DNA of 62,779 nucleotides from Clostridia bacterium (GCA_017464845.1 JAFTYD010000021.1:1-62779), one strand, 5' to 3'; positions 25,595 through 40,153 are shown, numbered from the stretch's first letter. A program made the numbers and translations. The notes: a model not told the origin generated them from the letters alone.

Positions 25595-25673
25595 ATTCTT
25601 TTCTCCTTTTTGATAGTATAATGATAACATAAAACAAAATCAATGTCAATAATTCTTATTTAGAATAAGAAAA

Positions 25674-25703
25674 ACAAAAAAACACCTTTAATATAGAGGT
25701 GTT
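25674..25703 (-). terminator. Terminator of the 74-aa gene
   Basis: On the coding strand, AAACACCTC-loop-AAGGTGTTT followed by T7. Confidence 0.7.
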
Positions 25704-25709
25704 TAATTA

Positions 25710-25934
25710 TCAAGAAATCTTTTTAACAATGAAGTTGTGTTTATTGTCAGTAGATATCAAATCAAAGTTTGCTTTTTTAAGTTCTGCTTTTAAGATTGTA
25801 AGATTTGGGTCGTCAGACAATATGTTTTGATTAAAGCATACTTCCAATTCATTTGAAGCATTAAAAGTATTTGGTGAAGTAGTTAAATCGTTAATGAACT
25901 CATGTGCGAATTCAAGAGGTGTTTGTTTTTCCAT
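25710..25934 (-). CDS. Hypothetical small protein (74 aa), chromosomal copy; ~89% identical paralog inside the element at 32116..32340
   Basis: RBS AAAGGAG. MEKQTPLEFAHEFINDLTT... is near-identical to the second copy. Confidence 0.6.
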   Translation of the reverse strand: MEKQTPLEFAHEFINDLTTSPNTFNASNELEVCFNQNILSDDPNLTILKAELKKANFDLISTDNKHNFIVKKIS

Positions 25935-26001
25935 AAATTTACTCCTTTAAATAATTTTAGCATAAAGAATAAATAAAAACAAATTATTAGTAAAGAAAAC
26001 A

Positions 26002-26081
26002 AAAAAAAGACTAGAATGAATCTAGTCTTTTTCATTTGGTAGCGTAAACTGGGTTCGAACCAGTGACCTCATGGGTATGAA
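26002..26081. repeat. attL: 80-bp perfect direct repeat (3' 45 nt of tRNA-Met plus its downstream terminator hairpin)
   Basis: aaaaaaagactagaatgaatctagtctttttcatttggtagcgtaaactgggttcgaaccagtgacctcatgggtatgaa is identical at 40042..40121. Confidence 0.9.
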
Positions 26082-26200
26082 TTTCAAATATTAATATAAC
26101 TTATATAAATAATAAAATATATTTATATTAAGAATAGTTTTAGAAAAATTTTTATTTTTAATTTGTTTTAATTTATTTTAATATTTGAAGTTTCACATTT

Positions 26201-27298
26201 TTAGTTACACATTAATCTTTTTATTTCATCTCCAAGTGAATTAACCATATTAAACATATTTTGGTTAATTGAATTTCTTGTATAGATATTTTTTGTTATT
26301 TGTATATCTGAATGTCCCATAATTTTACTTTTATTAATTATAAGTTCTTCATTATCTCTTATAAGTTGACTAAATGTATGTCTTAAGTCATGTTCTCTCA
26401 TATTTATATTATGTTTGCTTAATAAGTAATCATGAAATTTATGTGTAAAATAATCTGGTTTAATTTCGTTTAAAAATAAATTTGAACATACTTGTATATC
26501 TGGAAAATAGTTATTTTTATGTTCAAGTAATTCTTCTTTTAAAAAATTACTTAAAGGAATTGCTCTTTTACTTGATTTAGTTTTTAATGACTTTTTTAAA
26601 TAACTTTTTCCATTTGTAGTTATCATATTGTTTTTAAAATAAATTATATTGTTTTCAAAATCTATATTTTCCCATGTTAAACCTAATACTTCTCCTCTTC
26701 TTGCTCCAGTCATTACGGCAATAAGGGTTGGTATATATAGGTTATAGTAATTAGTTTTTAAGTCTTTTAATATTGTTGCAATTTCTTCAAGTTCTAATGT
26801 TGTTGATTCAAATTCTTCTTCATCTTCTTTATAATTTAATTTTTTTATATTGTTTGATGAAATGTAATCATAATTTACTCCCCAGTTGATTACAGATAAA
26901 ATGTATGTAACATAGTTTTTAACAGTTTTCTTTTTTAAACCTTTATTTTGATATTCGTCAATAAATTTTTGCAAAGCTCTTGTTGTAATATCTTTAACTT
27001 TAACTTTACCAAAATATGTTCTAGCAATATTTCTATCAAGTTTATAAACAGTGTTTAATGTAGTAGGAGATAGTTTGTTTTTTCTTTCTTCGAATCTTAA
27101 ATCATCTAACTTATTAAATGTAATATCAATAAAATCGCCTTTAACTTCATATTCAAGTTCTAATGCAAGTTTTTTAGCAGTAGTTAAACCAGAAATGTTA
27201 GAAACTTGTTTTGTTTGTGTTTTACCAAATATATCTTTTTTACCCCATGCTCTAACTCTATATTTCCCATTTTCTTGCAGTTCAATTTTATATGACAT
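26201..27298 (-). CDS. Tyrosine site-specific recombinase (phage integrase family)
   Basis: C-terminal catalytic blocks TGARRGEVLGLTW (Arg), HDLRHTFSQL (H-x-x-R) and GHSDIQITKNIYT (His...Tyr). Adjacent to attL. Confidence 0.9.
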   Translation of the reverse strand: MSYKIELQENGKYRVRAWGKKDIFGKTQTKQVSNISGLTTAKKLALELEYEVKGDFIDITFNKLDDLRFEERKNKLSPTTLNTVYKLDRNIARTYFGKVKVKDITTRALQKFIDEYQNKGLKKKTVKNYVTYILSVINWGVNYDYISSNNIKKLNYKEDEEEFESTTLELEEIATILKDLKTNYYNLYIPTLIAVMTGARRGEVLGLTWENIDFENNIIYFKNNMITTNGKSYLKKSLKTKSSKRAIPLSNFLKEELLEHKNNYFPDIQVCSNLFLNEIKPDYFTHKFHDYLLSKHNINMREHDLRHTFSQLIRDNEELIINKSKIMGHSDIQITKNIYTRNSINQNMFNMVNSLGDEIKRLMCN

Positions 27299-27316
27299 AT
27301 TTATTCCTTTTTATAT

Positions 27317-27574
27317 TTAAGATATTCTTATAGATTTATTCTTATTATTTTTAGAAGGTGGAAGAATGAATAGTAATATTGCAATGTAAACAATTATTCC
27401 AAATACATAATATGCACTTGTAGTAGTAGTTGACCAAATATTGGTTATACCTGTTTTTCCAGTTACTTTTATAGAACATTCAGTTATTTCTAAGATTTCA
27501 CTTGGAGAAAATTCAAGTAAATTTATTGTAACATCATATTGTATGTTTTTTTTTACATCTCCTATTTCTTTCAT
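27317..27574 (-). CDS. Small membrane protein (85 aa); possibly the C-terminal half of a gene split at an A8 run
   Basis: C-terminal TM (YYVFGIIVYIAILLFILP). Its reading frame stays open upstream through the A8 run at 27639-27646. Confidence 0.45.
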   Translation of the reverse strand: MKEIGDVKKNIQYDVTINLLEFSPSEILEITECSIKVTGKTGITNIWSTTTTSAYYVFGIIVYIAILLFILPPSKNNKNKSIRIS

Positions 27575-27630
27575 CTCGTATTCTAATAGTTTATTATTTT
27601 TATCATAGTAATTAAATTTAATTTCTAAAT

Positions 27631-27855
27631 CTAATATATTTTTTTTGGAACTATTGTATATTTCATTGAAGTTGAAAATTCATCTTGATTATTAATGGTT
27701 ATATCATCTATTGTAGCATCTTTACATAATGGATTTAAAGTACATCTTGTTATAGGAAATAACAAAAAACATATTAATAATATAATTAGAAAAACTTTAA
27801 TGCCGGTTTTAATAGATTCGTTTTTGGGTGTTTCAGTAGTAGTATTATTATCCAT
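27631..27855 (-). CDS. Small membrane protein (74 aa); possibly the N-terminal half of a gene split at an A8 run
   Basis: N-terminal TM/signal anchor (IKVFLIILLICFLLFPI). Stops 2 codons after the A8 run. Confidence 0.45.
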   Translation of the reverse strand: MDNNTTTETPKNESIKTGIKVFLIILLICFLLFPITRCTLNPLCKDATIDDITINNQDEFSTSMKYTIVPKKIY

Positions 27856-27869
27856 ATATTTTCTCCTTA

Positions 27870-28469
27870 TTATAAACTTCTTCTGATTTCAACTGCAACT
27901 CCTATAATTCTTACGGGTGTATCTAATATTTCTTGATTTGTATAAAAAGTTGGTTTAAATTCGTTGTTTGAATTATGAGGTAAGATCCAAATTCCGTTTG
28001 GGTCTTTTTTTATTTCTTTTAAAGTAGCGTCATATCCGTTTATCATAACAACACAAATTTTACCACTTTCAGCATCGTCTTGTTGACGGACTATAACAAC
28101 ATCTCCGTTTTTAATGGTAGGAAGCATAGAGTCTCCTTTTACTTTCAAAGCAAAATATTCTCCTCTTAAGGCCATTTCTTCAGAAATCTCTTCATAATCA
28201 AGAATTTCTTCAATTGCTTCAATAGGTATTCCTGCAGGAATTGTCCCAAGTACAGGTATTTTTTTTGCTTTATTAGTTGGAGTTATTTTTCCTAGTAAAT
28301 TATCTGTTGTTGTGTTAAAAAATTCTGCAATTTTTGTTAATGTTTGTAAATCTGGTTCGCTTCCTCCAGTTTCATACATTGCTATTGTTGATCTTGAAAT
28401 TCCTATACATTTTGCTAATTTTTCTTGTGTTATTCCTTTTTGTGTTCTTAGTTGTTTTAAATTTATCAT
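27870..28469 (-). CDS. LexA/CI-like repressor (XRE HTH + S24 peptidase domain)
   Basis: N-terminal HTH (ITQEKLAKCIGISRSTIAMYETG). C-terminal GDSMLPTIKNGDVVIV (Ser nucleophile) and downstream ATLKEIKK (Lys). Confidence 0.9.
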   Translation of the reverse strand: MINLKQLRTQKGITQEKLAKCIGISRSTIAMYETGGSEPDLQTLTKIAEFFNTTTDNLLGKITPTNKAKKIPVLGTIPAGIPIEAIEEILDYEEISEEMALRGEYFALKVKGDSMLPTIKNGDVVIVRQQDDAESGKICVVMINGYDATLKEIKKDPNGIWILPHNSNNEFKPTFYTNQEILDTPVRIIGVAVEIRRSL

Positions 28470-28490
28470 TTTTTCCTCTTTTTATTAATT

Positions 28491-28593
28491 ATGTCAAAAT
28501 ACTTGACTAAAAACAATAAAATTTTAAAAATATATGTCAAAATACTTGACACCTTCTGTATATTGTGTTACTATTAGTCAAGTATCTTGACAT
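28491..28593. promoter_or_regulatory. Three 17-bp palindromic operators TGTCAA-N5-TTGACA in the repressor/cro divergent region
   Basis: O1 28491-28507 and O2 28534-28550 are both atgtcaaaatacttgac. O3 28577-28593 is gtcaagtatcttgacat, the inverted orientation with 1 mismatch. The TTGACA halves double as -35 boxes. Confidence 0.8.
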
Positions 28594-28649
28594 TTATTAT
28601 TTATTTTGTTAATTTGCTTGACATTTTATAAAATTAAAGGAGAGGTGTT

Positions 28650-28862
28650 ATGGCAGTAAAGCAGATAAATGAACTTGAATTAATAGAAGTTCGTAAAAAA
28701 ATAGGTTTGTACTCAATTAAGGAACTATGCTTGATGTTTAAAATCGGTCGAGAAAGTATCGATTATGCTTTAAATACAAATCGTTTAAAGTATATATCTC
28801 CAAATAATAGGGATAGGTATATTTATTTAAAAGATTATTTGAAATATGTTGAAAGCTTATAG
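28650..28862 (+). CDS. Cro/excisionase-like small DNA-binding protein (70 aa)
   Basis: Divergent from the repressor across the operators. HTH-like YSIKELCLMFKIGRESIDYAL. Confidence 0.6.
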   Translation: MAVKQINELELIEVRKKIGLYSIKELCLMFKIGRESIDYALNTNRLKYISPNNRDRYIYLKDYLKYVESL

Positions 28863-28870
28863 GAGTCATT

Positions 28871-29011
28871 ATGAAAAATAAAGAAGTTATAGAAAAAGAG
28901 TGGGAAAGTTATAAGAAATTTTGTTTATTACATGGATTGTTTAAAAATGATGCTAATAGTTTAAGTTATTTTGTTAATGTTTCAGAAGAGTATGGTTATG
29001 AATTTGTTTAA
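28871..29011 (+). CDS. Small hypothetical protein (46 aa), not in the ORF track
   Basis: ATG 28871 lies 4 nt after AGGAG. MKNKEVIEKEWESYKKFCLLHGLFKNDANSLSYFVNVSEEYGYEFV. Confidence 0.4.
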   Translation: MKNKEVIEKEWESYKKFCLLHGLFKNDANSLSYFVNVSEEYGYEFV

Positions 29012-29059
29012 GAGAGAATATAAGGAAATTTTGTAAAAAAAACAGATAGGAGAAAAAAA

Positions 29060-29932
29060 ATGAACATAAATGAATTGATGGTTAAAGAAGAAGGTGTACT
29101 TACATTTAGACAAAAATTTTTTTTGAAAGTACATACAAGTATAATGACATCTGGTGCTGTAATAAGTAATGCATTGTTAGATTTGGCTAAAAATTTAAGA
29201 GAAATGAAAGAAGAGGAATTGTATCTTGAAGTTGGTTTTAAAACATTTGATGATTATTGTGAACAAGTTTGTGGTTTAAAATCAAGGCAGGCTTATAACT
29301 ACATAAAAGTATTTGATGATTTGGGAGAGGAATTTTTGCATTCAAATGCAAAAATTGGAATAAGTAAATTGACTCTTTTAACAACATTATCTGAGGGGGA
29401 GAAGATTGAAATTTTTGATAATGTAGATATAGAGGGAATTTCTGTTAAAAAATTAAAACAAGAGATTGAGGATCTTAAGAAAAGAAATAAAGTTCAAGAA
29501 GATGTTGTGTATGAAAAAGATAAATTAAAGCAGGAAGTTGTAATATTAAAAGCAAAAATAAATGAACTTAAGAATCAAAATCCAAAAATAGTTGAAGTTG
29601 AAAAAGACAATTCTGAGAATTTTAAAAAGAAATTATTAGATTTAGAATACAAATTAAGAATAACTAAAGATCAACTAAAAGATAAAGAAAAAAATCTAGA
29701 TGAACAGTTACGAAGTAAAGATTTAGAAATTGAAAAATTGAAAACGTCTTATAATATTCTTTCAAAACAAGTTCAAATAAATAGTTCTGAAGAATTAGTT
29801 GAATTTAAGATGAAATTTGATGATTTACAAAAAATTGTTATTTCTCTTAAGAATTTAATTTTAAGGCTTCCTGAAGATAAACAAGAAGGTTGTAAAAATG
29901 CTTTAAAAAAGGTGGTAGAAGTTTTATGTTAA
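29060..29932 (+). CDS. Hypothetical coiled-coil protein, DUF3102-like N-terminus (290 aa)
   Basis: N-terminal region (LDLAKNLREMKEEELYLEVGFKTFDDYCEQVCGLKSRQAYNYIKVF) resembles phage/ICE DUF3102 proteins. Long Lys/Glu coiled coil. Confidence 0.4.
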   Translation: MNINELMVKEEGVLTFRQKFFLKVHTSIMTSGAVISNALLDLAKNLREMKEEELYLEVGFKTFDDYCEQVCGLKSRQAYNYIKVFDDLGEEFLHSNAKIGISKLTLLTTLSEGEKIEIFDNVDIEGISVKKLKQEIEDLKKRNKVQEDVVYEKDKLKQEVVILKAKINELKNQNPKIVEVEKDNSENFKKKLLDLEYKLRITKDQLKDKEKNLDEQLRSKDLEIEKLKTSYNILSKQVQINSSEELVEFKMKFDDLQKIVISLKNLILRLPEDKQEGCKNALKKVVEVLC

Positions 29933-30225
29933 AAGATGAATTTTTAGATATGATGAAACAAGATTTAGTTACTAAAAATGATAAAAATTTATATCAAGTT
30001 TTAGAAATTTTTGAAAATATTTTGAAAGATTATCCTAGTACATTGAATATCGATTCTAGTAAAAGTATAGAAGAGTGTTATAAGAATATGGAAAAATATG
30101 CTAAAAGTCATGCAAAAAATGGTTGCTATTGTTTCTCTGGAGTAGAATCTACTAACTTTATAATTAACTATTTTGGTTTAAAAAAACAAGAAAATATTTT
30201 TTTGAAATTAGAAGATTTTATATAG
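29926..30225 (+). CDS. Hypothetical protein (99 aa)
   Basis: ORF overlapping the upstream stop, within the same-strand early gene block. Confidence 0.45.
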   Translation: MLKDEFLDMMKQDLVTKNDKNLYQVLEIFENILKDYPSTLNIDSSKSIEECYKNMEKYAKSHAKNGCYCFSGVESTNFIINYFGLKKQENIFLKLEDFI

Positions 30226-30232
30226 TTTTGTT

Positions 30233-31570
30233 ATGAGAAAATATACTTTAAATTATTATTTAGAATTTTTGGAAGAACAAAATTCTAAAAAGTTTTTAAA
30301 TAAATTAAAAAAATATATTAATAATGTAATACCGAAAATAGAAGAGCGATATAAAAAATTATCAAAAGCTTTTTTAATTGATTATGTATCAAGATATGAA
30401 GATTTTTATATGATTACAACTTATAGAACTGATAATTTATTGCCTGTAGGGATTAATATAATCAGGTATAAAAATGGTAAGAAAATTGAACAGTTCTATA
30501 GACAGGATTTTATTAATTATTTTAGTGCTGATACATATTGGCTTAGGGGTAAGATGAATTACTTTACTAAAAGATATCTTTATTGTGATAACTTAAAGGA
30601 ATTATTTAAAGAATCTGAATTTAATTATAGTGAAGTTTGGAATTTAGGTAAAAAGATTGATTTAAAGATAAGACATCTTTTATATTTCTGTGAAACAAAA
30701 GAAATTAAAGTTATTGAAAGTTTAACTAAGATAGGTTGTTATAAACTTGCAAGAGATATTATGAATGGGAAATATTCAATAATAGATTGTAAAGATTTAG
30801 TTAAGTCTTTACGAATTCCTGATAAGAATTTTTTAAAGAAAATAAAACAAGAAGATTTTGGAGCATATTCTTTAATCATTTATAAAAGATTTTTAGATCT
30901 TTCTTTACCAGATAAATATTTCAAGTATTTAAAAGGTTTTTTTAAATCTTATTATAATCTTGAAAGATTTGATGGCTTTACACATAAAGCTTTTGTTGAT
31001 TATTATCTTGAACAGATAAAACAAAAGTTATATAAAGGTTGTTTTTGTTATTTTTATCAAGATTATCGAGATTATATTTTTGTTGGGAAAAAGTTAAATT
31101 ATAATTTTAAAGATTCAAAATTTTATAGACCATTTAATTTTAAAGTTGCTCATGATAATGCAGTAAATAAATTAGATTCAGTTAAAAATAAAGAACTGTA
31201 TTCAAAAGTTAATAAAGAACTAAGAAAATATCAATGTTTAAATTTCGAAGATAAAAAATATTTAGTTGTTATGCCTATAAAAGCTGAAGATATTATTACT
31301 GAAGGTCAACAAATGATGAATTGTGTTGGATCATATTTAGGAAGAATTAAAGATAAAAAATCAATAATTTGTTTTATTCGTAAAATTGAAGAAAGAGACA
31401 AAAGTTTTTATACATTAGAATTAAATCCAAAGGATTTTAAAGTGGTTCAGTGTAGAGGTTTTCATAATAATCCTACATCGGAAGAATACCAGGTTAAAAA
31501 GTTTGTAAGTAAGTGGTTAAAAGAAATTGTTGAAAAAAATGTTATGAAATTATCTAGAGAGGGATTATGA
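30233..31570 (+). CDS. PcfJ-like protein (445 aa)
   Basis: C-terminal EGQQMMNCVGSYLGRIKDKKSIICFIRK...FYTLEL...VVQCRGFHN matches my recollection of the PcfJ-like domain. Confidence 0.45.
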   Translation: MRKYTLNYYLEFLEEQNSKKFLNKLKKYINNVIPKIEERYKKLSKAFLIDYVSRYEDFYMITTYRTDNLLPVGINIIRYKNGKKIEQFYRQDFINYFSADTYWLRGKMNYFTKRYLYCDNLKELFKESEFNYSEVWNLGKKIDLKIRHLLYFCETKEIKVIESLTKIGCYKLARDIMNGKYSIIDCKDLVKSLRIPDKNFLKKIKQEDFGAYSLIIYKRFLDLSLPDKYFKYLKGFFKSYYNLERFDGFTHKAFVDYYLEQIKQKLYKGCFCYFYQDYRDYIFVGKKLNYNFKDSKFYRPFNFKVAHDNAVNKLDSVKNKELYSKVNKELRKYQCLNFEDKKYLVVMPIKAEDIITEGQQMMNCVGSYLGRIKDKKSIICFIRKIEERDKSFYTLELNPKDFKVVQCRGFHNNPTSEEYQVKKFVSKWLKEIVEKNVMKLSREGL

Positions 31571-31770
31571 AAGAAAGTTTTTATAAGAAATTAAAGAGAT
31601 ATATAAGTTTATTAAGAGAGGGTAATAAGAATTTTATTAATTATTTATTTTCAAAGTTTGATAAATATCGTGAAGAAGAAAAGAAAAATTTAGATGATAT
31701 AAGAGTTGATAAACTCTTAATTTGGTCAGCATTGAAAGATTTTGAAGCTGATTTAATAATAGAATTTTAG
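31567..31770 (+). CDS. Hypothetical protein (67 aa)
   Basis: ATGA overlap with the upstream gene. Confidence 0.4.
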   Translation: MKESFYKKLKRYISLLREGNKNFINYLFSKFDKYREEEKKNLDDIRVDKLLIWSALKDFEADLIIEF

Positions 31771-31793
31771 TTTAAAATTATAGGAGAAATATT

Positions 31794-32087
31794 ATGGCAT
31801 TATATAAAAAACAACTTTTTGTAAAAACAAGAAAAGGTATATGGAAATGTAAAGAATGTAAGATAGAGAAGATACCTTGTAGTGAAACTTTTTGGAAAAA
31901 AAGTAATTTAATTGAAAAGAAATCTCAAATTGGAGAACACACTTATCTTACCTTTGTATATTCAAAGAATGGATTTGATAAGATTGTTTCAAAAGCTATT
32001 ACTTATTTTGGTAAAAATGAAAAGGTAATAAGAGAATTAATAACTACATCAAATGTTTTACCAAAGTCTTATAAGGGCATGAAATAA
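31794..32087 (+). CDS. Hypothetical protein (97 aa)
   Basis: RBS TAGGAGA. Possible Cys pair (CKECKIEKIPC). Confidence 0.45.
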   Translation: MALYKKQLFVKTRKGIWKCKECKIEKIPCSETFWKKSNLIEKKSQIGEHTYLTFVYSKNGFDKIVSKAITYFGKNEKVIRELITTSNVLPKSYKGMK

Positions 32088-32115
32088 AAAAACACCTAAT
32101 GTAAAGGTGTTTAGT

Positions 32116-32340
32116 TTAAGAAAGCTTTTTTACAATGAAGTTGTGTTTGTCGTTTGTTGGTATCAAATCAAAATTTGCTTTTTTAAGCTCTGATTTTAAG
32201 ATTGTAAGATTTGGGTCGTCAGACAATATGTTTTGATTAAAACATACTTCTAACTCATTTGAAAGATTGAAACTATTTGGTGTAGTAGTTAAATCATTAA
32301 TGAATTCATGTGCGAATTCAAGTGGTGTTTGTTTTTCCAT
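32116..32340 (-). CDS. Hypothetical small protein (74 aa), element copy of 25710..25934
   Basis: 66/74 identical residues. The promoter and terminator flanks are also homologous. Confidence 0.6.
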   Translation of the reverse strand: MEKQTPLEFAHEFINDLTTTPNSFNLSNELEVCFNQNILSDDPNLTILKSELKKANFDLIPTNDKHNFIVKKLS

Positions 32341-32463
32341 AAATTTACTCCTTTAAGTAATTTTAACATAAAGGAAAAATAAAAACAAATTACTGATAAA
32401 AGAAATTTAAAAGTCGAGCAAATAAATAGTATTTGTAATTAAAAAAAAATAATAGGGAGAATT

Positions 32464-32655
32464 ATGAGATATAGTACAAAAAGAATATGGGGTACAGTAT
32501 TTTTATTTATTGGAATAATTATTTTATCATTAATAATTACCTCATTAGTTTTAGCTTCCATTCATGAAAATTCACTTGTTTCTGAATGGAAAAGTTGGTT
32601 TGGTCTTATGAAATTAGTAAAAGAACCAGTTGTTTCTTTAATGTTAAAAAAATAA
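32464..32655 (+). CDS. Small single-TM protein (63 aa)
   Basis: RBS AGGGAGA. TM segment WGTVFLFIGIIILSLIITSLVLA. Confidence 0.5.
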   Translation: MRYSTKRIWGTVFLFIGIIILSLIITSLVLASIHENSLVSEWKSWFGLMKLVKEPVVSLMLKK

Positions 32656-32670
32656 ATATAGGAGATTTCT

Positions 32671-34038
32671 ATGAGAAAAATAATTAACTTTATATTGATA
32701 TTGTTACTTATTCTTAATTGTTACTCTCCTGGTATAAATACAGCTTTTGCTGATGTAGATAGTGGTGTATATACAAATATACTTGATGATTTAGAAAAAG
32801 ATAAAAATTTTAAAAAAGAAGATTATCCATTAATTGAAGAAGATTATTCTTTACAGTTAATTCAAGTTGCAGAAAGTGAAAATAAAGAATTATTTATTTA
32901 TGTGTATCAACCTAATGGAAATAAAGATATTGTCGCAACTTATATTAATATGAGTCTAAATTCTGAGTTTACTAATCCATCTTTATATTCTTTAAAATTA
33001 CTTAATTATACAGGTACATTGTTTAAATATAAAGTCAATAGTATTGAGATAGATTTTGATTCGGTAAGATATTACAATATTGCCTCTATATTTAGAGATT
33101 TTATTCCAGATATTGATGAAGATGTAGATTCAAATAATACAATTAATTCAGTAAGTTTTGAAGTTGGCCAATTATGGGCTTTATCGTTTGATGATAATAA
33201 CAATTTGGTTTCTGAAATGCAAAAAACAGAAGTGGTTACTATTGTTGATAAATATGTTGGTTTCTTAAGATATAATAGTGATAATTTTTGGACTGGAAAA
33301 AAATGTGATGTTCACTTTGTAGCTTTTTCTACCGATTATAAAATTGATGAATTATATGAAGTAGATATTAGATATATTACTAAGAAATATAAGACTACTA
33401 CAGATTTAGGTATTCTTATTGAATCTTATGAATCAGGAACTAAATATGATTCTTCTATTACTCATGTTGAAACATTAACTTCTGATGAAAGTATTGATGC
33501 TACTTTAGGTTTTATAATTAAAGAAAAATATAGTTGGGATATGATTTCTACTTCAGAAAAATTTATAGAAGATAGAGAAAAAGAGAATATACAATTTAGT
33601 TCTTCTGCAAAAAAACAAATAAAAGATAAAGAATGGGTATTAAATTTTTATATTTCAGATTATAAAAAATGGAATGATCGTGTAGCAGGAACTCCTGTTG
33701 TTTCTTTTGAGACAGGAACTAAGGTTGAGCAGGTTACTTTACTTAGATTAAAATTTAAAACTGATGGTAAAATTTATAATTTAGGTGTGGTTGACAATAT
33801 ACAAACTGGAAGTGATACTCCTTCAGGTATTGGTTATACATTATTAGACTTAATAAAAAAAATACTAGATTATTTAAAAAATAATTGGTGGTGGATATTG
33901 TTAAGTGTTTTAGGATTTATTATTTTAATACCATTATTACCAATAATTATTCCATTGTTATTTAAAGGTATAAAGTTGTTATTTAAAGGATTGTGGTGGC
34001 TTGTAAGTACACCATTTGAAATATTTAAAGAAAAATAG
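32671..34038 (+). CDS. Secreted protein with N-terminal signal peptide and C-terminal TM anchor (455 aa)
   Basis: MRKIINFILILLLILNCYSPGINTAFA signal. C-terminal WWWILLSVLGFIILIPLLPIIIPLLF. This is the topology of filamentous-phage pIII-type proteins. No sequence family recognised. Confidence 0.55.
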   Translation: MRKIINFILILLLILNCYSPGINTAFADVDSGVYTNILDDLEKDKNFKKEDYPLIEEDYSLQLIQVAESENKELFIYVYQPNGNKDIVATYINMSLNSEFTNPSLYSLKLLNYTGTLFKYKVNSIEIDFDSVRYYNIASIFRDFIPDIDEDVDSNNTINSVSFEVGQLWALSFDDNNNLVSEMQKTEVVTIVDKYVGFLRYNSDNFWTGKKCDVHFVAFSTDYKIDELYEVDIRYITKKYKTTTDLGILIESYESGTKYDSSITHVETLTSDESIDATLGFIIKEKYSWDMISTSEKFIEDREKENIQFSSSAKKQIKDKEWVLNFYISDYKKWNDRVAGTPVVSFETGTKVEQVTLLRLKFKTDGKIYNLGVVDNIQTGSDTPSGIGYTLLDLIKKILDYLKNNWWWILLSVLGFIILIPLLPIIIPLLFKGIKLLFKGLWWLVSTPFEIFKEK

Positions 34039-34048
34039 GAGATAGGAA

Positions 34049-35458
34049 GTGGTAAGAAGAATAATAGGATACATTTTAATTGGACTTCTTGCAATAGGAT
34101 CTTGTTTTGGAATTGGTTATGGAATTGCTTATTCACGTCTTAGAAAAAACACATCAATGGAATATGTTAATTCTTTAAAGAAAGAAATAAGAGATTATGA
34201 AAAACTTGTTGATAATTATTATTTAGAGATATCTACTTTAAATAAAACTATTGCAAACTTAAAACTTGAAATATTAAATAATGAAAGTATATCATCAGAT
34301 TATTTGGTTCAAATAGAATATTTAAATACACAAATAAATGAATTAAATGAGTTACTTAATATTTACAAAGGCAATGAAGAAAATTATATTAAAACGATTA
34401 ATGAACTTTCTTCTGAAATTGAATTATTAAATATTCAAATATTAGAATTGAAGTATGACTTAGATGAAGTATCTACAGCTAATGAAGAGTTAAATTTAAG
34501 ATTAACTAGATTAAATAATTCTATTAGTAATTTAGAAAATTATATAATTAATAACTTATCTGATAATGAAGTTTTAATTACATTTGAAGTTGATAATAGC
34601 ATAGAATCAATTCAAATTGTTGAGAAGAATTCAACAATAAATATTGATGAACTTGTTATTCCTGAAAATATTGAATTGTTAGGTTGGGTAGTTGATGGAG
34701 TTCTAGTTAATTCAGATACATATGTTGTAACAGAAAATACTAAGTTTATTGCCTTATTTAATGAATATGTAATGGTTGATGAATATTATGATAATAATTT
34801 AAATGAATCATTTTCTAATGTGTTAAAATCAAGAGCATTTTTATTTGATGATTATGGAGTAGATTTTTCTAATATTCAAGCAAATATTAATTATGTAAAG
34901 CTTCAAAATGAAAATCTTATAATTGGTTTTAAAAATGGAAGTAATGAAACAGATATGTTTGAAGTTACTTATGATGTGGCTAAATTTAATTTAAATGTTT
35001 CTAGTTTTAAAGCTGAAGATTTAGAGAAAATTATTCAATTAGAAATAAAGAATTTTAATAGTTATACAAAAGCAACAACACTTTCAATTGGAGATAAGTT
35101 TGATAATAAACTTAATGCTTTAGTTAATAATGTTGTTGGTTGTGTTAATGAAAATATTGATACTTCAAATGTTTACTTTGAGTTTGTTTGTTCTAATGAA
35201 TCATCAAAAGAAATTTATACAATGAATATTTTACTTGTTACAGAAAATGGAAATTCATATAAAATTAATAATTTTGGTATTATTACTGGAGTAGAAAATT
35301 TTTCATTTATTGAAGAAGATGTTAAAAATTATTGTTTATCTAAATTTTCTGGAATTATTGGTGTTAGTTTAGAAGGTTTGTCTAGTTCTAGTGGTTTTAA
35401 TTTTAGTGAAGAAAAATTAGATATTTATTTTTCAACACTTAATTTTGTATTAGTTTGA
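34049..35458 (+). CDS. N-terminally anchored coiled-coil protein (469 aa)
   Basis: GTG start after TAGGAGATAGGAA. TM IIGYILIGLLAIGSCFGIGYGIA followed by heptad-rich LNxxIxxL repeats. Confidence 0.5.
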   Translation: MVRRIIGYILIGLLAIGSCFGIGYGIAYSRLRKNTSMEYVNSLKKEIRDYEKLVDNYYLEISTLNKTIANLKLEILNNESISSDYLVQIEYLNTQINELNELLNIYKGNEENYIKTINELSSEIELLNIQILELKYDLDEVSTANEELNLRLTRLNNSISNLENYIINNLSDNEVLITFEVDNSIESIQIVEKNSTINIDELVIPENIELLGWVVDGVLVNSDTYVVTENTKFIALFNEYVMVDEYYDNNLNESFSNVLKSRAFLFDDYGVDFSNIQANINYVKLQNENLIIGFKNGSNETDMFEVTYDVAKFNLNVSSFKAEDLEKIIQLEIKNFNSYTKATTLSIGDKFDNKLNALVNNVVGCVNENIDTSNVYFEFVCSNESSKEIYTMNILLVTENGNSYKINNFGIITGVENFSFIEEDVKNYCLSKFSGIIGVSLEGLSSSSGFNFSEEKLDIYFSTLNFVLV

Positions 35459-35475
35459 AATAGGGAGAAAGAGTA

Positions 35476-36210
35476 TTGAAAAAAATATTATTGATTATTT
35501 TTGTATTGTTAACTTGTATTGCTACTTTTGTATTAGGGTTTTATGTAAAAGACAATACAACAAAAGAAATTGATTCAAATACTTCTAATTTAGAAGATAT
35601 TGTTGAAGAAAAAAATAGCTTGATTAGTGATTTAATAAAAGAAAATGAAAGTTTAAAAAATAATAATGAAGTTGTTTCTTATGATAATACAAAATTTGCT
35701 TTTAATTTAAGTGAATTAGGTCTTTATAAAAACAATGAATATACAGTGTTTACAAATGTAAATGATCCAAATCTTGCTTATGGAATTATTAGTAATGATA
35801 TGTTTTATTTTGAAGATTCATATTATGAAAATCTTGATTCTGTTCTTAGAATTCAAGTAAGTGTTGAAGAGAATTTTCAACAAGTTAATCTAGATGCTTA
35901 TCATTATTATTTTTGTAGAACAATTACATTTGATTTAAAAAATTCAAGTGTTGATGAGTTAGAATCAATAAAATCAATTTCTTTAAAAATTGATGGAGTA
36001 GATTATGTTATTGATATGACTAATAATGTAATTGAAATTAATGATGTAAATTGTTCAGTTGGTTTAGTAATTTTGCCTTTGGAAAATTGTGAACAATATT
36101 ATACTCAGTTGTATATTATTCCATCTGCTAGTGATTCAAGTGTAGTATTTAATATTAATAGTTTAGAAATGACTTCTTTTGAAGTTGAAAGTTCAACAAT
36201 TAATTTGTAA
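35476..36210 (+). CDS. N-terminally anchored/secreted hypothetical protein (244 aa)
   Basis: TTG start after AGGGAGAAAGAG. Signal/anchor KKILLIIFVLLTCIATFVLGF. Confidence 0.5.
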   Translation: MKKILLIIFVLLTCIATFVLGFYVKDNTTKEIDSNTSNLEDIVEEKNSLISDLIKENESLKNNNEVVSYDNTKFAFNLSELGLYKNNEYTVFTNVNDPNLAYGIISNDMFYFEDSYYENLDSVLRIQVSVEENFQQVNLDAYHYYFCRTITFDLKNSSVDELESIKSISLKIDGVDYVIDMTNNVIEINDVNCSVGLVILPLENCEQYYTQLYIIPSASDSSVVFNINSLEMTSFEVESSTINL

Positions 36211-36220
36211 TTTAGTGCGA

Positions 36221-36320
36221 TGGTGGGGACACTTCAATACTACCCACCACTAGATATATTTAATTGTATTTTCCTCCTTTATACAATTAGATATATTACC
36301 AACTACCAAGGGCCCGGTAG
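36221..36320 (+). other. Structured, locally G/C-rich intergenic region with three hairpins (candidate packaging signal / complementary-strand origin)
   Basis: TGGTGGG(36221-27)/CCCACCA(36243-49). TAATTGTAT(36261-69)/ATACAATTA(36281-89) with loop TTTCCTCCTTT, flanked by direct TAGATATATT repeats. CTACC-AAGGGCCC-GGTAG (36303-20). Confidence 0.5.
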
Positions 36321-36350
36321 TAAAAAAAATAAATATGAAAGGGAAATAAT

Positions 36351-36800
36351 ATGGAAGATTTAAGAAAATTAAATGAAATGGTAAAAGCGATTAGTTTAGG
36401 TTTAGATAAGAATACTAATAGAAATTATGGAGAAAGAGCAATTTGTACTGTAGAATTTTTTAATGGAGAAAAATTAACATTTAAAGATAAAAATAATCAG
36501 TTGTATAGATTGTTGATGGCTTATAAGAAATGTGGAATTGATATTAATAATGTTATTACTTCAAAAAGATTAATTGAAGATTATAAATCAAATAAGTTAG
36601 ATGATATTTCTGAAGATGATAAGGATAGTATTGACAATGATAAGTCGACATTTGTAGCTGTGCTTTATGAAGTAGATGGATATAAATACTATTTATTCCC
36701 ATCTGATTTTACTGTGCTTAGAATTATTGATTTATATTATAACAAGTTTTTAGAACTTCGTTCTGAAAAAAATAAAATTAAAAAAGATATTAAGGAGTAA
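36351..36800 (+). CDS. Hypothetical protein (149 aa)
   Basis: ORF with RBS AAAGGGAAA. No motif recognised. Confidence 0.45.
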   Translation: MEDLRKLNEMVKAISLGLDKNTNRNYGERAICTVEFFNGEKLTFKDKNNQLYRLLMAYKKCGIDINNVITSKRLIEDYKSNKLDDISEDDKDSIDNDKSTFVAVLYEVDGYKYYLFPSDFTVLRIIDLYYNKFLELRSEKNKIKKDIKE

Positions 36801-36803
36801 ATA

Positions 36804-36935
36804 ATGAGAAAAAGATATCTTAAAAATGCTAATAAAAAATGTGTAAAAAAAGTAACAAGAGTTACTGAATCATATTCTGATGGTTCTAAAGTTATTACAT
36901 ATAGAATTCCATCAAAAAAAAGAACTAAATATTAA
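36804..36935 (+). CDS. Very basic small protein (43 aa), not in the ORF track
   Basis: ATG 36804 lies after AAGGAG. MRKRYLKNANKKCVKKVTRVTESYSDGSKVITYRIPSKKRTKY has 14 Lys/Arg of 43 residues. Confidence 0.4.
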   Translation: MRKRYLKNANKKCVKKVTRVTESYSDGSKVITYRIPSKKRTKY

Positions 36936-36959
36936 TTAGTTTTTTAGTGAGGATTAATT

Positions 36960-37178
36960 ATGGGAGTTATTGATTATACTAAATTTAAACTATCTTATAA
37001 TGATTTGCGAAAATATTATAAAGGTTATGGTGTTTATAATCGTAAAGGTGAATTAGTTAATATTAGTTCAATGTCTAATAACGAATTACGTTCTTTTCAA
37101 AATGATTTGGCTAATGAAAGAAAAAATTTTTTATCTGGCAAAAAAGGTTGGAAAGTTATTATTCGAAAAATCAAATAA
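36960..37178 (+). CDS. Hypothetical small protein (72 aa)
   Basis: RBS GTGAGGA. Basic C-terminus. Confidence 0.45.
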   Translation: MGVIDYTKFKLSYNDLRKYYKGYGVYNRKGELVNISSMSNNELRSFQNDLANERKNFLSGKKGWKVIIRKIK

Positions 37179-37274
37179 AAAATTATTTTGGAGTAAATTA
37201 TGCATATTGTCAAAATCAGTAAAAATAACTAAATACTAAAATGAACTTATTGTCAAATAAAATACGAGGTTTAT

Positions 37275-38183
37275 ATGGTTAGAAAATTTAATGATGTGTT
37301 CGATTTGAATAAACGAATTGGGAAAATGCTTATATGTGGAGTAGAAGGTTCTGGAAAGACTTTACTTTCTACATATATTGGTATTCAAAAAATGTTAAGA
37401 GGTCAGGAAGATTGTTGGAAGTCTTTTAAAGAAATAGATAATATAAATAAATTAGGTTATACTTTTTCTAAAAACTTTGAACATTTGTTATTTTCTAATT
37501 ATGATATGAATTGTAAAGGTACTTATGTACCTAATCGTAAAACAAATTTACTAGATCCATTTAAGGTTGGGTTGGTATGTAAAAATTATGAAACAGTACC
37601 ATTACCACCATATTCCTTTTTAATAATAACAGAAGCTCAAAGAGTTTTTAATGCGTATATGTGGCAATATTTAAGAGCTGAAGTTCGAGCATTTTGGGAA
37701 ACATCAAGGCAAGCTAATATAGAAATAATACTTGATACAAATCAACCTGAATTAATTTATAAAGGTATGAGAGAATTGTTAAATCGAATAATTTATTTAT
37801 ATAAAGATACAGAAGAGGTAATAGATAAAGAAGGGAATGTTAAAGGTCATAGACTATACATTAAAGAGTTTAAAAAGTATAAATACCTAGAAAAGTATCT
37901 TGAGAATTCTAATGAAAATTTAGTAATGGACACATATATTTTAGAATTAGTTGGTTGTTTGTATTCAAATTATGATTCTTATCAATGTAAGATGTTACAT
38001 TTAAATGGTAGAACAGATGATGATTATAATATTGCAAAGTTCCCAGATATAAAAACTATTGAAGATGTTGAAATGTTTGCAGAAAATTTTGGATTATATC
38101 CTCCAGAAGGTTATTATGTTAAACCTTCAACAAATGTAAAACAAAGTAATAATAAAGAAGAAATTATAGGAGAAATATTTTAA
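37275..38183 (+). CDS. Zot-like P-loop NTPase (candidate filamentous-phage pI-type morphogenesis ATPase)
   Basis: Walker A GVEGSGKT (37338-37361) near the N-terminus. Walker B-like FLIITEAQRVF. SRQANIEIILDTNQPELIYKGMRELLNRIIYL resembles the HRHxGxDIxLxTQ...IR block of Zot/pI. No TM segment seen. Confidence 0.55.
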   Translation: MVRKFNDVFDLNKRIGKMLICGVEGSGKTLLSTYIGIQKMLRGQEDCWKSFKEIDNINKLGYTFSKNFEHLLFSNYDMNCKGTYVPNRKTNLLDPFKVGLVCKNYETVPLPPYSFLIITEAQRVFNAYMWQYLRAEVRAFWETSRQANIEIILDTNQPELIYKGMRELLNRIIYLYKDTEEVIDKEGNVKGHRLYIKEFKKYKYLEKYLENSNENLVMDTYILELVGCLYSNYDSYQCKMLHLNGRTDDDYNIAKFPDIKTIEDVEMFAENFGLYPPEGYYVKPSTNVKQSNNKEEIIGEIF

Positions 38184-38557
38184 TGGAAGAATTAGATAAT
38201 TTAACAGAAAATACAGATAGCATGTTAAAGTTAAGACTTAAAGGTAAACTTATTAATGATATATCTTCTGTATTTTCTGAAATAGCTCAGAATAAAGGTG
38301 TTTATGCTGAGTGTGGTCGATTTGGTCGAAGATTTAAAAATAAAGCTGTAAAGAGTATTTATACAGATTTTTGTAAAGGTTTAAAAAGTTTAGATAAAAA
38401 AATACCAGTATTTATTGAAATTCCAAAGCTTCAAGAATATTCAAATGGTACATATGAAGAAGTACATAGTAATAAAAAAGAAAGAACACTCGTTTCTTCT
38501 CCTATTCAAAAAGAAGTAGAAGGGAAAATAGAAGAAGTTAAGTATCTTGTTCAGTAG
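38183..38557 (+). CDS. Hypothetical protein (124 aa)
   Basis: TAATG overlap with the Zot-like gene. Confidence 0.45.
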   Translation: MEELDNLTENTDSMLKLRLKGKLINDISSVFSEIAQNKGVYAECGRFGRRFKNKAVKSIYTDFCKGLKSLDKKIPVFIEIPKLQEYSNGTYEEVHSNKKERTLVSSPIQKEVEGKIEEVKYLVQ

Positions 38558-38615
38558 TTTAATTTATAAATTGTTTTTTTTGTTTATTAGTAATAATAAT
38601 AAATTGGTGTGGTAT

Positions 38616-38719
38616 TGTGGTAAACTCATAGAGTTTTCCATCAATTCCAGTCAATGTGGTTAACTCGTTGAGTTATCCAAAGTTATCCATATTTCCACAT
38701 TTTGTGGTAATGTGGATAA
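38616..38719. promoter_or_regulatory. Cluster of DnaA-box-like 9-mers
   Basis: Perfect TGTGGATAA (38711-19). One-mismatch boxes TTATCCAAA (38673-81), TTATCCATA (38683-91) and TGTGGTTAA (38655-63). Weaker TGTGGTAAA (38616-24) and TGTGGTAA (38703-10). Confidence 0.55.
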
Positions 38720-38794
38720 CTGGCATTGACCGAAGCGCCATAAAAAAGACCTTAGAAAATACTTCGTAGTTGTATTAAAAATACAAATATGATA

Positions 38795-38832
38795 GACACA
38801 GTCTAAGGTATAGTATTACCTTAGACTGTGTC
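38795..38832 (+). promoter_or_regulatory. Putative rolling-circle origin stem-loop carrying TAGTATTAC
   Basis: Perfect 16-bp inverted repeat GACACAGTCTAAGGTA / TACCTTAGACTGTGTC around loop TAGTAT. TAGTATTAC (38811-38819) spans the loop and the first 3 nt of the 3' arm. Lies 115 nt upstream of rep. Confidence 0.65.
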
Positions 38833-38912
38833 GCATTGTCGCATGATACTATTTTATAGATGTTTTTAAACATTTTAAATTGTCGCATTGATGTCGCATT
38901 ACTGTGTCGCAT
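38829..38912 (+). repeat. Five direct TGTCGCAT iterons adjacent to the stem-loop
   Basis: Copies at 38829-36, 38837-44, 38881-88, 38892-99 and 38905-12. The first overlaps the 3' arm of the hairpin. Two copies extend to ACTGTGTCGCAT. Confidence 0.8.
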
Positions 38913-38946
38913 ATAAAAATTGTTCATTTTTAAAGGGGGAATAAAA

Positions 38947-40026
38947 GTGGATGAAATTGAGATTATTGATTTTGATGAAAGTAAATTAAATAGTCAAAGT
39001 AGAAGATGGATGTTGACTATAAATAATCCAGTCCAATCTGATGAAGAAATAAAAGATTATGTTGAAAATTTAGAACATTTTAAATATTGTATGTTTCAAA
39101 GGGAGAAAGGTAATGAAACTGGGACTATTCATATTCAGATGTTTATAATTTTTTCAATTGGCAAGAGATTTAGTACTATAAAAAATTATTTTCCGACAGC
39201 TCATATAGAACAAGCAAAAGGAAATAATGCTCAGTGTAGAGATTATTGTTCTAAAACAGATACTCGTATTTCTGATAATTATTATGAACTTGGTAAGTTT
39301 GCAGAAGAAAGAGCAAGAACTGATATTACTAATTTCATGCAATTGGTTGAGGCTGGAGCATCTGATTATGAATTAAAAAAATTGTATCCTAAACTTTTTT
39401 TAGATTATTTTCATAAACTACCAATTATTAGAATGACTACTGATATTGATTATTCAAAACAGGATAGAGATATTGAAGTTATATATGTTTATGGTAAAGC
39501 TGGTAAAGGGAAAAGTACCTATGTAAAAAAAGAAACTATTAATGATAGAGTTTTTAGGGTTGATACATTTGATTTATCAGCATTTTCAAATTATCAAGGA
39601 GAAAATGTTCTTGTTATTGATGAATTTAAAGGTCAATTTAAAATACAAACATTAAATAAATTACTTGATAGCTTTCCAGTTAAGTTAAGAGGGTTAAATA
39701 GTTTAGTTTTTGCAAGATATACAAAAGTTTATATAATTTCAAATTTTCATTATAAAGACCTGTATAAAGATGAGCAAGTTGAGAATATAGACCAGTATAA
39801 AGGTTTTGTGCGAAGACTTCATAGGGTAATTAAACTTGTAGATTATAAATTACCACCAATAATTGAAAGAGATACAATCTTTGAAGATATACCAAATGAG
39901 GAATTAATTCCATTTGGAAGAAAGAAAAGAATAAATAAGGTAATAGAATATAATAATGGAGTACCTCGTATAACTTATGATATTGATTTTTCAGAAATAC
40001 AAGTAGATAAATTAGATATTATATAA
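38947..40026 (+). CDS. Rolling-circle replication initiator: HUH endonuclease + SF3 helicase, CRESS-DNA-virus-like Rep
   Basis: Motif I WMLTINN (39007-27), motif II HIQ (39130-38), motif III YCSK (39244-55). Walker A GKAGKGKS (39493-516), Walker B VLVIDEF, motif C IISN. GTG 38947 lies 6 nt after AAAGGGGGA and is preferred to TTG 38920. Confidence 0.85.
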   Translation: MDEIEIIDFDESKLNSQSRRWMLTINNPVQSDEEIKDYVENLEHFKYCMFQREKGNETGTIHIQMFIIFSIGKRFSTIKNYFPTAHIEQAKGNNAQCRDYCSKTDTRISDNYYELGKFAEERARTDITNFMQLVEAGASDYELKKLYPKLFLDYFHKLPIIRMTTDIDYSKQDRDIEVIYVYGKAGKGKSTYVKKETINDRVFRVDTFDLSAFSNYQGENVLVIDEFKGQFKIQTLNKLLDSFPVKLRGLNSLVFARYTKVYIISNFHYKDLYKDEQVENIDQYKGFVRRLHRVIKLVDYKLPPIIERDTIFEDIPNEELIPFGRKKRINKVIEYNNGVPRITYDIDFSEIQVDKLDII

Positions 40027-40043
40027 AATTAGATATTATATAA
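40010..40043 (+). repeat. Perfect 17-bp tandem duplication AATTAGATATTATATAA x2 at the rep stop / attR junction
   Basis: Copy 1 at 40010-40026 contains the rep TAA. Copy 2 at 40027-40043 runs into attR. The AATTAGATAT core also occurs at 36286. Confidence 0.8.
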
Positions 40044-40121
40044 AAAAAGACTAGAATGAATCTAGTCTTTTTCATTTGGTAGCGTAAACTGGGTTCGAAC
40101 CAGTGACCTCATGGGTATGAA
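40042..40121. repeat. attR: 80-bp perfect direct repeat overlapping the intact tRNA-Met 3' end
   Basis: Identical to 26002..26081. Confidence 0.9.
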
Positions 40122-40153
40122 CCATGCGCTCTAACCAACTGAGCTACTACGCC
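40077..40153 (-). tRNA. tRNA-Met (anticodon CAT), elongator type
   Basis: 77-nt cloverleaf: acceptor GGCGTAG/TTACGCT, D arm GCTC-AGTTGGTTA-GAGC, anticodon arm CATGG-TTCATAC-CCATG, T arm ACTGG-TTCGAAC-CCAGT, encoded CCA. The anticodon arm resembles Bacillus elongator tRNA-Met. Confidence 0.9.

Follow-up and report, generated by a model that had tools for sequence, protein, structure and literature searches.

A tRNA-Met-integrated element of a Clostridia bacterium links a Zot-like ATPase to a circovirus-type Rep and origin: a candidate temperate filamentous prophage

Eukaryotic circular Rep-encoding single-stranded (CRESS) DNA viruses are thought to have acquired their Rep from pCRESS-type bacterial plasmids. 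Elements of the pCRESS kind, integrated in tRNA genes and 5-17 kb in size, were described in Clostridia, Erysipelotrichia and Mollicutes, where they carry a tyrosine integrase, an FtsK-like ATPase and a single-stranded DNA-binding (SSB) protein (Kazlauskas, Varsani, Koonin and Krupovic, 2019; PMC6668415). According to that paper none of them encodes viral structural proteins, and one, HugHat-E1 (pCRESS2), has a Zot gene with an HHsearch match of 100% to the phage I assembly protein (PMC6668415). Among the inoviruses, Roux et al. (2019; PMC6813254) reported one rolling-circle replication (RCR) family, iPF_00203, that contains the S3H domain "typical of eukaryotic ssDNA viruses". Gut inoviruses of Enterocloster with a short Zot that lacks a transmembrane (TM) segment are secreted as filaments, as shown by quantitative PCR and electron microscopy (PMC10061712). 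Here we describe an element at positions 26002-40121 of a 62,779-nt stretch of DNA from Clostridia bacterium (GCA_017464845.1 JAFTYD010000021.1:1-62779; the window), in which a Zot-like ATPase and a circovirus-type Rep stand side by side.

On balance, the element is probably an intact temperate, non-lytic single-stranded DNA (ssDNA) prophage of the filamentous (Tubulavirales-like) kind, residing in the tRNA-Met gene of an uncultured gut Clostridia bacterium. When set against the definition of inoviruses of Roux et al. (2019), it has the ATPase and a size of 14.0 kb, and its genes are short and for the most part uncharacterised. Between 28650 and 40026 every gene is on the plus strand save for one inserted cassette, and most belong to no family. 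An initial annotation of the locus had proposed an inovirus-like phage or an integrative rolling-circle replicon with a Rep other than pII, a hedged reading that the verified parts support. The combination is less new than it assumed: a filamentous-phage ATPase linked to a nuclease-superfamily 3 (SF3) Rep is already found in iPF_00203 and in the "bajarodino" inoviruses discussed below, and the pCRESS elements of Kazlauskas et al. (2019) precede it as well. The features that carry the reading are as follows.

37275-38183, plus strand: 302-aa P-loop ATPase of the Zot/pI-like type, TM-less, C-terminal tail acidic
38596-38745, plus strand: multi-hairpin region (ssDNA fold -33.9 kcal/mol, z -9.1)
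38795-38832, plus strand: plus-strand origin hairpin with a 16-bp perfect stem and the nonanucleotide TAGTATTAC at 38811-38819
38830-38912, plus strand: five GTCGCAT iterons, candidate Rep binding sites
38947-40026, plus strand: Rep with an HUH nuclease (PF02407, E 2e-14) and an SF3 helicase domain (PF00910, E 3e-6)

The assignment of the ATPase to the Zot/pI type is supported by three independent routes (Pfam, PHROGs and fold). The protein scored 23.1 bits against PF05707, above the gathering cut-off (GA) of 20.3, and matched phrog_197 with an E-value (E) of 2.7e-5. Its AlphaFold2 (AF2) model, built with 19 homologues (pLDDT 84), had 2r2a as top Foldseek match in the PDB (E 6e-9), the N-terminal domain of a Zot protein from a filamentous prophage of Neisseria, followed by the packaging ATPase B204 of STIV. 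A HMMER scan of 1.84 billion representatives returned 394 relatives, nearly all of 250-310 aa, and 34 of the 51 that were sampled matched PF05707, with no match to rival families. The profile searches of the open reading frames (ORFs) that the initial annotation had called for thus recovered both Zot (PF05707) and Viral_Rep (PF02407), and its Zot-like ATPase stands, with the adjustment that the protein has no TM segment. This absence is no counter-argument, since Orf8 of Propionibacterium phage B5 (308 aa) also lacks a TM segment and is matched just as weakly (25 bits in Pfam, 1.6e-4 against phrog_197), and the Zot of the Enterocloster phages measures about 224 aa. The tail of the Zot-like family is acidic with an aromatic last residue (..GEIF, ..EDVF, ..TQVF), and recalls the partner-binding tails of bacterial SSB proteins.

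Rep comprises 359 aa when read from the GTG behind AAAGGGGG, or 368 aa from a TTG at 38920. In the translation we identified the nuclease motifs I (WMLTINNP), II (HIQ) and III (YCSK), as well as the Walker A (GKAGKGKS), Walker B (VLVIDEF) and C (IISN) motifs of the SF3 helicase. The closest solved relative is the full-length Rep of PCV2 (7lar, E 3e-19, aligned residues 18-274), and the one match in PLSDB is the Bifidobacterium plasmid p4M, at 31% identity. Rep is predicted to be specifically of the circovirus/pCRESS (p4M-like) type.

The intergenic region before Rep spans 363 bp, or 389 bp when counted to the GTG start, and has at the sequence level the layout of a CRESS-type origin, in which a stem-loop with NAGTATTAC adjoins iterons upstream of rep. 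The hairpin (dG -16.3 kcal/mol, z -5.9) presents TAGTATTAC, the canonical nonanucleotide of circoviruses and nanoviruses, and GTCGCAT occurs six times in the window, five of these at the origin, a total that none of 100 shuffles reached. Each locus has a single copy of the nonamer, directly ahead of rep in all cases; this holds for the window, the related loci L008-L011 and two bajarodino genomes. Hairpin extraction added five further family loci with an origin hairpin, and all relatives that were examined, as well as the two bajarodino genomes, have (T/A)AGTATTAC in a hairpin immediately before rep. As the hairpin loops vary in length, stem co-variation was assessed by a register-anchored pair count: in eight hairpins all stem cells (80/80) are Watson-Crick, with a mean of 2.8 pair types per position. 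The pattern reads as compensatory variation around an invariant, putative nick motif. The HUH-SF3 Rep with its own origin, as initially annotated, is hereby confirmed and sharpened to the TAGTATTAC hairpin and its iterons.

Upstream of the hairpin, the region 38596-38745 is a candidate complementary-strand origin and/or packaging signal. The equivalent region of L008, whose Zot is 46% identical, folds with a z of -8.7. The nonamer strand is the sense strand of all morphogenesis genes.

The likeness to Circoviridae and other CRESS-DNA viruses extends to Rep motifs I-III, the SF3 Walker A and B motifs and motif C, the PCV2 match, the TAGTATTAC hairpin and the adjoining iterons. In contrast to those viruses, the element has a bacterial host, is a 14-kb integrative unit and contains no jelly-roll capsid gene; unlike in Circoviridae, rep shares its strand with all morphogenesis genes.

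Between Rep and the early genes lies a set of membrane, secreted and small proteins.

32464-32655, plus strand: 63-aa single-TM protein with the motif ..EW+SWFG.., conserved in relatives
32671-34038, plus strand: 455-aa protein: signal peptide, all-beta ectodomain, C-terminal TM hairpin; core gene, 35-39% identical in relatives
34049-35458, plus strand: 469-aa N-terminally anchored, acidic coiled-coil surface protein, its N-terminal part kept in relatives
35476-36210, plus strand: 244-aa N-terminally anchored acidic protein, not conserved in sequence
36351-36800, plus strand: 149-aa core protein, conserved in 7/7 family loci
36804-37178, plus strand: two very basic small proteins, of 43 aa (net +13) and 72 aa (net +10)
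38183-38557, plus strand: 124-aa core protein, overlapping the Zot stop codon with its start

Four consecutive secreted or membrane-anchored proteins had been noted initially, and a hydrophobicity scan bears this out, with an N-terminal hydrophobic segment in each of the 63-, 455-, 469- and 244-aa proteins. The 63-aa protein, directly upstream of the 455-aa gene, is the sole candidate for a small virion or coat protein. The 455-aa family comprises more than 319 clusters without a Pfam domain; the predicted topology of its member here is pIII-like, being that of inovirus pIII, and the AF2 model (pLDDT 89.7) gave nothing meaningful among PDB folds (TM-score at most 0.16). Neither the 149-aa nor the 124-aa core protein has a sequence match in Pfam or the PDB; a single-sequence search with the former returned two proteins only, and we consider it a candidate DNA-binding or assembly factor. 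The basic small proteins may condense or escort DNA, and relatives encode equally basic proteins of about 85-98 aa at the same place. Two such extremely basic proteins (+10 to +14), untypical of filamentous phages, are always found upstream of the Zot gene (in the window, L008 9089-9679, L033 13601-14224 and L005 8249-8864).

The gene order parallels that of the isolated phage B5 (Paulinoviridae, Bifilivirus), a filamentous phage of a Gram-positive host. B5 shares the succession of a small TM protein, a protein of about 485 aa with a signal peptide and a C-terminal TM segment, a TM-less Zot of about 308 aa and an RCR Rep. It differs in its size (5.8 kb), in the absence of an integrase and repressor, in having several small TM proteins including a classical coat, and in its Rep_1 (pUB110-type) Rep without helicase; in a profile comparison of the two ATPases the P-loop alone aligns. 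The Enterocloster phages differ in their IKe-like coat proteins and their Reps of the phiX/G4-A type or other types without helicase. The inoviruses of Roux et al. (2019), compared by description, are likewise integrated, of about 6-16 kb, and combine a pI/Zot-like ATPase with short TM proteins and interchangeable Rep and integration modules.

The bajarodino viruses (PQ006121, PQ006124, PQ006165, PQ006184 and others), circular genomes of 5-10 kb from rodent faeces that are filed under Inoviridae, share the order Zot, TAGTATTAC intergenic hairpin, Rep, and their Rep is 30-32% identical over about 300 aa. Unlike the element, they have a GC content of about 53%, small TM proteins resembling the classical major coat and pVI, a strong Zot match (70 bits), a transposase in place of tyrosine integrase and repressor, and HTH rather than HIQ as Rep motif II. 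Outside Rep we found no similarity between these genomes and the element, and a literature search on "bajarodino" viruses found no paper.

Homologues of the Zot-like protein, 41-65% identical, are encoded in 9-14 kb contigs or in chromosomes of metagenome-assembled genomes (MAGs) labelled uncultured Clostridia, and the core recurs in tRNA-integrated elements of about 10-14 kb in MAGs of gut Clostridia. By tblastn, this core consists of the 63-aa protein (weak), the 455-aa protein, the N-terminal part of the 469-aa protein, the 149-aa protein, Zot, the 124-aa protein and Rep, and the origin is kept likewise. Variation affects the integrase, the type of repressor, PcfJ and further early genes. 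The conserved unit is thus morphogenesis plus replication, with an exchangeable lysogeny module. Homologues of the 455-aa protein also occur beside other RCR Reps, namely Rep_OBD with SF3 (L031) and REP_ORF2-G2P (L036, the IMG/VR contig IMGVR_UViG_3300045988_184145, which in addition carries a serine recombinase and DUF927), and this fits the module shuffling known for inoviruses. A relative of the same architecture has a PemK-family toxin gene downstream of rep (L033/L034, 17358-17714).

The family is widespread and appears to be undescribed. The parts that appear undescribed are the TM-less Zot clade and the 63-, 455-, 149- and 124-aa core proteins without an annotated family, together with the absence of a classical coat gene, the S24 switch and the presence, in an integrative element of bacteria, of an explicit circovirus-type origin that is conserved.

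With the pCRESS elements the locus shares a circovirus-type HUH-SF3 Rep with motif II HUQ, a size within about 5-17 kb, a tyrosine integrase, insertion at a tRNA 3' end (with att repeats of 15-56 bp in pCRESS) and gut Clostridia among the hosts; HugHat-E1 (CZAZ01000001, 167507-174549) shares the Zot gene as well. Most pCRESS elements have FtsK-like ATPases, 2k5d-like SSBs or MOBV relaxases, whereas this family has a Zot-like ATPase, a conserved set of membrane and secreted proteins and an S24 switch (HugHat-E1 was compared by description). The integration geometry corresponds to that of pCRESS, with a tyrosine integrase, att repeats and tRNA-Met as target; the related element L008 (11,462 bp, 48-bp repeat) resides in tRNA-Ala.

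26002-26081: attL, 80-bp direct repeat consisting of the displaced 3' 45 nt of tRNA-Met and a 35-nt downstream terminator hairpin
40042-40121: attR, 80-bp direct repeat covering the last 45 nt (3' end) of the intact tRNA-Met gene

The two repeats are 100% identical over 80 nt and start 14,040 bp apart. The sole tRNA gene in the window is tRNA-Met(CAT) at 40077-40153 on the minus strand, so that the right repeat consists of the tRNA 3' 45 nt and 35 nt downstream including the terminator hairpin; the left repeat is a partial, displaced copy of the tRNA end. The 32-nt tRNA part of the repeat occurs in two places only, where shuffles predict none. GC content is 0.215-0.275 within the element and 0.26-0.36 in the flanks. 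These data uphold the perfect repeats and the compositional distinctness of the block that the initial annotation had reported. Independent metagenome contigs from other samples reproduce both junctions: L006 spans left flank, attL and integrase with 0 mismatches, and L004 spans Rep, attR and tRNA with 2, by which an assembly artefact as source of the repeats is ruled out. The right-flank contigs L017-L019, from three independent assemblies (MEGAHIT k141, a scaffold and a Logan unitig), all begin at 40074, at the tRNA 3' end and 32 nt into the attR repeat. Since assembly with k = 141 ought to bridge an 80-bp repeat, a co-existing variant (an empty site or another element) probably diverges at this position.

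A cassette found inside the element has a counterpart directly outside attL.

32085-32405, minus strand: reverse cassette of a terminator, a 74-aa ORF (32116-32340) and its upstream region

It is approximately 90% identical to the cassette at 25680-26000, and its 74-aa ORF matched no family. The pair could be the relic of an older related element at the same tRNA, or a captured host gene.

The left part of the element encodes the lysogeny module and the early genes.

26201-27298, minus strand: tyrosine integrase, 365 aa (PF00589, E 8e-16; phrog_1, E 5e-56)
27317-27574, minus strand: 85-aa single-TM ORF of the lysogeny-side operon (hydrophobicity scan; no family)
27631-27855, minus strand: 74-aa single-TM ORF of the lysogeny-side operon (hydrophobicity scan; no family)
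27870-28469, minus strand: CI/LexA-like repressor, 199 aa (PF01381, E 5e-18; PF00717, E 5e-29; phrog_4, E 8e-42)
28493-28507, 28536-28550 and 28577-28591: three palindromic operators
28650-28862, plus strand: 70-aa first gene of the rightward operon (HTH_17, PF12728, E 0.011, below cut-off)
29060-29932, plus strand: 290-aa protein of a phage/plasmid family (phrog_15609, E 2e-21; weak DUF3102 match)
30233-31570, plus strand: PcfJ-like protein, 445 aa (PF14284, E 8e-34)

The repressor combines an N-terminal helix-turn-helix domain (HTH_3) with a C-terminal S24 autopeptidase, and inspection of the translation located Ala79-Gly80, Ser114 and Lys151 in LexA spacing. It is divergent from the rightward operon across a 180-bp region with the repeated operators, as in a switch of the CI/LexA type. 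The operators are 15 bp long with the pattern GTCAA-N5-TTGAC (GTCAAAATACTTGAC at 28493-28507 and 28536-28550, GTCAAGTATCTTGAC at 28577-28591), and their half-sites double as TTGACA-type -35 boxes of the divergent promoters. A general promoter and terminator scan (119 sites, 116 expected) was uninformative in this AT-rich DNA. Judged from the repressor type, the switch would be SOS-inducible. Integrase, S24/HTH repressor and three operators had all been recognised in the initial annotation and were found as described; of its Cro/Xis-like gene, the ORF itself stands (70 aa), but as the HTH_17 match is weak and below cut-off, a Cro- or Xis-like role is plausible only, and we treat the gene as a candidate. 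The 85-aa and 74-aa TM ORFs sit between integrase and repressor and would for that reason be expressed in a lysogen. They are possible candidates for superinfection exclusion, the 85-aa product possibly as an exclusion or immunity protein.

From this arrangement we infer the following cycle. In the lysogen, the repressor would sit on its operators until SOS-activated RecA provokes self-cleavage at Ala79-Gly80, which would release the plus-strand operon of approximately 11.4 kb. A 14,040-bp circle would then be cut out by the integrase, possibly assisted by the 70-aa HTH protein in the role of directionality factor, and the tRNA would be restored. Rep, bound to the GTCGCAT iterons, would nick TAGTATT/AC in the plus-strand hairpin, with the SF3 helicase driving rolling-circle synthesis, and the multi-hairpin region of the displaced plus strand would act as complementary-strand origin and/or packaging signal. 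The ssDNA would pass to the cytoplasmic Zot-like ATPase, which together with the 63-, 455-, 469- and 244-aa membrane proteins would assemble and extrude particles without lysis.

Several observations weigh against a filamentous prophage. The Zot sequence match is weak and confined to the ATPase core, and L031/L032 and L036 carry homologues of the 455-aa protein with no recognised Zot. In the 63-aa protein the TM segment is N-terminal and the tail amphipathic, without the layout of a hydrophobic core and a basic C-terminus, and no pVI/pVII/pIX-like small TM ORF (at least 20 aa) was found in the module. With a single small TM protein, unlike the classical coats of B5, the bajarodino viruses or the Enterocloster phages, the filamentous virion is not proven. 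A classical major coat protein was not found in the module either. Terminal-overlap tests for a circular contig were negative on every fetched contig, and contigs simply end at the att repeat; an exact-protein look-up of the right-flank YqeY, aimed at an empty site or attP, gave only contigs starting inside the att repeat, a scan of JGI metagenomes found no attL/attP junction, and a pattern scan of IMG/VR with the Zot profile found no relative. In one contig, L011 (11,477 nt), a 15-nt terminal overlap was considered as a sign of a circle and is just what is expected of a de Bruijn unitig from the interior whose k-1 overlaps run into an exact att repeat of 45 nt.

With no classical coat, circle, attP, empty site or IMG/VR match found, the main rival is the plasmid reading of Kazlauskas et al. 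(2019), a serious possibility to which we give less credence than to a prophage. Here no virion would be made, and the locus would be a pCRESS-type unit, either a rolling-circle plasmid in its integrated state or an integrative mobilisable element. Once excised, the circle would be replicated by Rep, which may have a further role as relaxase at the hairpin origin; the Zot/FtsK-HerA-type ATPase would translocate or partition DNA, and the surface proteins would serve in adhesion, mating or exclusion. The Rep agrees with this, being probably of the p4M-like/pCRESS1-3 group, with p4M as its one plasmid match and a HIQ that fits the HUQ signature of pCRESS3, and elements with this Rep type were read as plasmids without viral structural genes (PMC6668415). 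The missing classical coat and the PcfJ-like protein, whose family was first named from a conjugative plasmid, point in the same direction, and a structured ssDNA region is equally expected of a plasmid single-strand origin. However, both in sequence and in fold the ATPase matches Zot and not FtsK, TcpA or VirD4, and family scans recognised no relaxase accessory, VirB4, VirB6-like multi-TM protein or cell-wall hydrolase. The core consists mostly of secreted and membrane proteins in the order seen in phage B5; within the dataset of PMC6668415 itself, the pCRESS2 element HugHat-E1 has a Zot gene; and homologous Reps with the same origin occur in circular genomes that do encode classical coat proteins.

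Alternatively, a temperate ssDNA virus with a non-filamentous, membrane-derived particle (a plasmavirus or an L172-like pleomorphic virus) could be envisaged, which we regard as improbable. The envelope or spike function would then fall to the 455-aa protein, and condensation of the DNA to the very basic small proteins conserved in the family; the lack of a classical coat protein is in line with this. In BFVD the 455-aa model has one significant match, which is also its top one, to a protein of L2, an enveloped temperate phage of Acholeplasma; this protein, ORF1 (E 9.5e-5, probability 1.0; L035, 246-2021), likewise ends in a TM hairpin. After ORF1, the 12-kb L2 genome continues with a small 2-TM ORF and a TM-less P-loop protein of 312 aa, then with an origin and a tyrosine integrase. 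L172, an enveloped phage of Acholeplasma that is unsequenced, has an ssDNA genome of 14 kb according to a passage of PMC6356626 that cites it. Against this, the TM-scores of the L2 match are only 0.17-0.22, hhalign and hmmsearch linked none of the L2 ORFs to the element in sequence or profile, no likeness to Zot was detectable in L2 ORF3, and the Foldseek match is the one sign of homology to Plasmaviridae. Moreover, the Spo0A-like regulator and the Clostridia label indicate that the host presumably has a cell wall, from which budding is hard to picture.

A cryptic remnant, no longer mobile and inherited with the chromosome, would account for the failure to recover a circular or empty-site junction, and the related cassette beside attL hints at earlier decay of such elements here, but we think it very unlikely given that all core ORFs are intact, the att repeats identical and the origin hairpin and iterons perfect, that the core shows purifying-type conservation across relatives of 35-65% identity at different tRNAs, and that the assembly breaks at the att site suggest co-existing variants. 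A caudoviral prophage was rejected: no capsid, terminase, portal or tail family was found in Pfam or PHROGs at E<=0.01 save for spurious P-loop matches, in agreement with the initial annotation, which had seen no gene typical of double-stranded DNA phages.

Throughout the family, a pCRESS-type Rep and a textbook circovirus origin are physically linked to a filamentous-phage ATPase and a conserved envelope set. If particles are made, bacteria host viruses with circovirus replication machinery, and the plasmid-to-virus scenario gains a branch. A bolder proposal, which we put forward as speculative, is that the family forms a distinct, widespread lineage of bona fide ssDNA viruses of gut Clostridia with a circovirus-type Rep and origin and a particle built of proteins that are unrelated to the classical inovirus coat set, namely the 63- and 455-aa families with a new fold and a faint likeness to ORF1 of plasmavirus L2. 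If true, part of the "pCRESS plasmids" would be viruses rather than plasmids, and a new virion type with a Zot-like ATPase would exist. Two families, the 455-aa proteins (>300 clusters) and the TM-less Zot proteins (394 representatives), are markers of a mobile element that is abundant in animal gut Clostridia, lacks annotation and appears to be overlooked by standard virus catalogues. The element also offers a compact, predicted SOS switch and a defined RCR origin for work on uncultured Clostridia.

Among the early genes, the PcfJ-like gene had no tblastn match in the related loci and is accordingly accessory. ORFans lie between it and the membrane-protein set. Ten accessory proteins were compared with the PADLOC defence models, which gave spurious coiled-coil matches only.

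The flanks consist of ordinary chromosomal genes. To the left lie pflB and pflA, followed by a 256-aa ORF (24860-25630, minus strand) between pflA and the outer cassette, with a GC content above that of the element and no NCBIfam or PADLOC family. To the right are YqeY, a Spo0A-like regulator, ProRS, a SAM riboswitch and metK. The Spo0A-type response regulator (43341-44105) indicates a host from an endospore-forming lineage of Firmicutes, and the SAM riboswitch is located at 46095-46179, upstream of metK.

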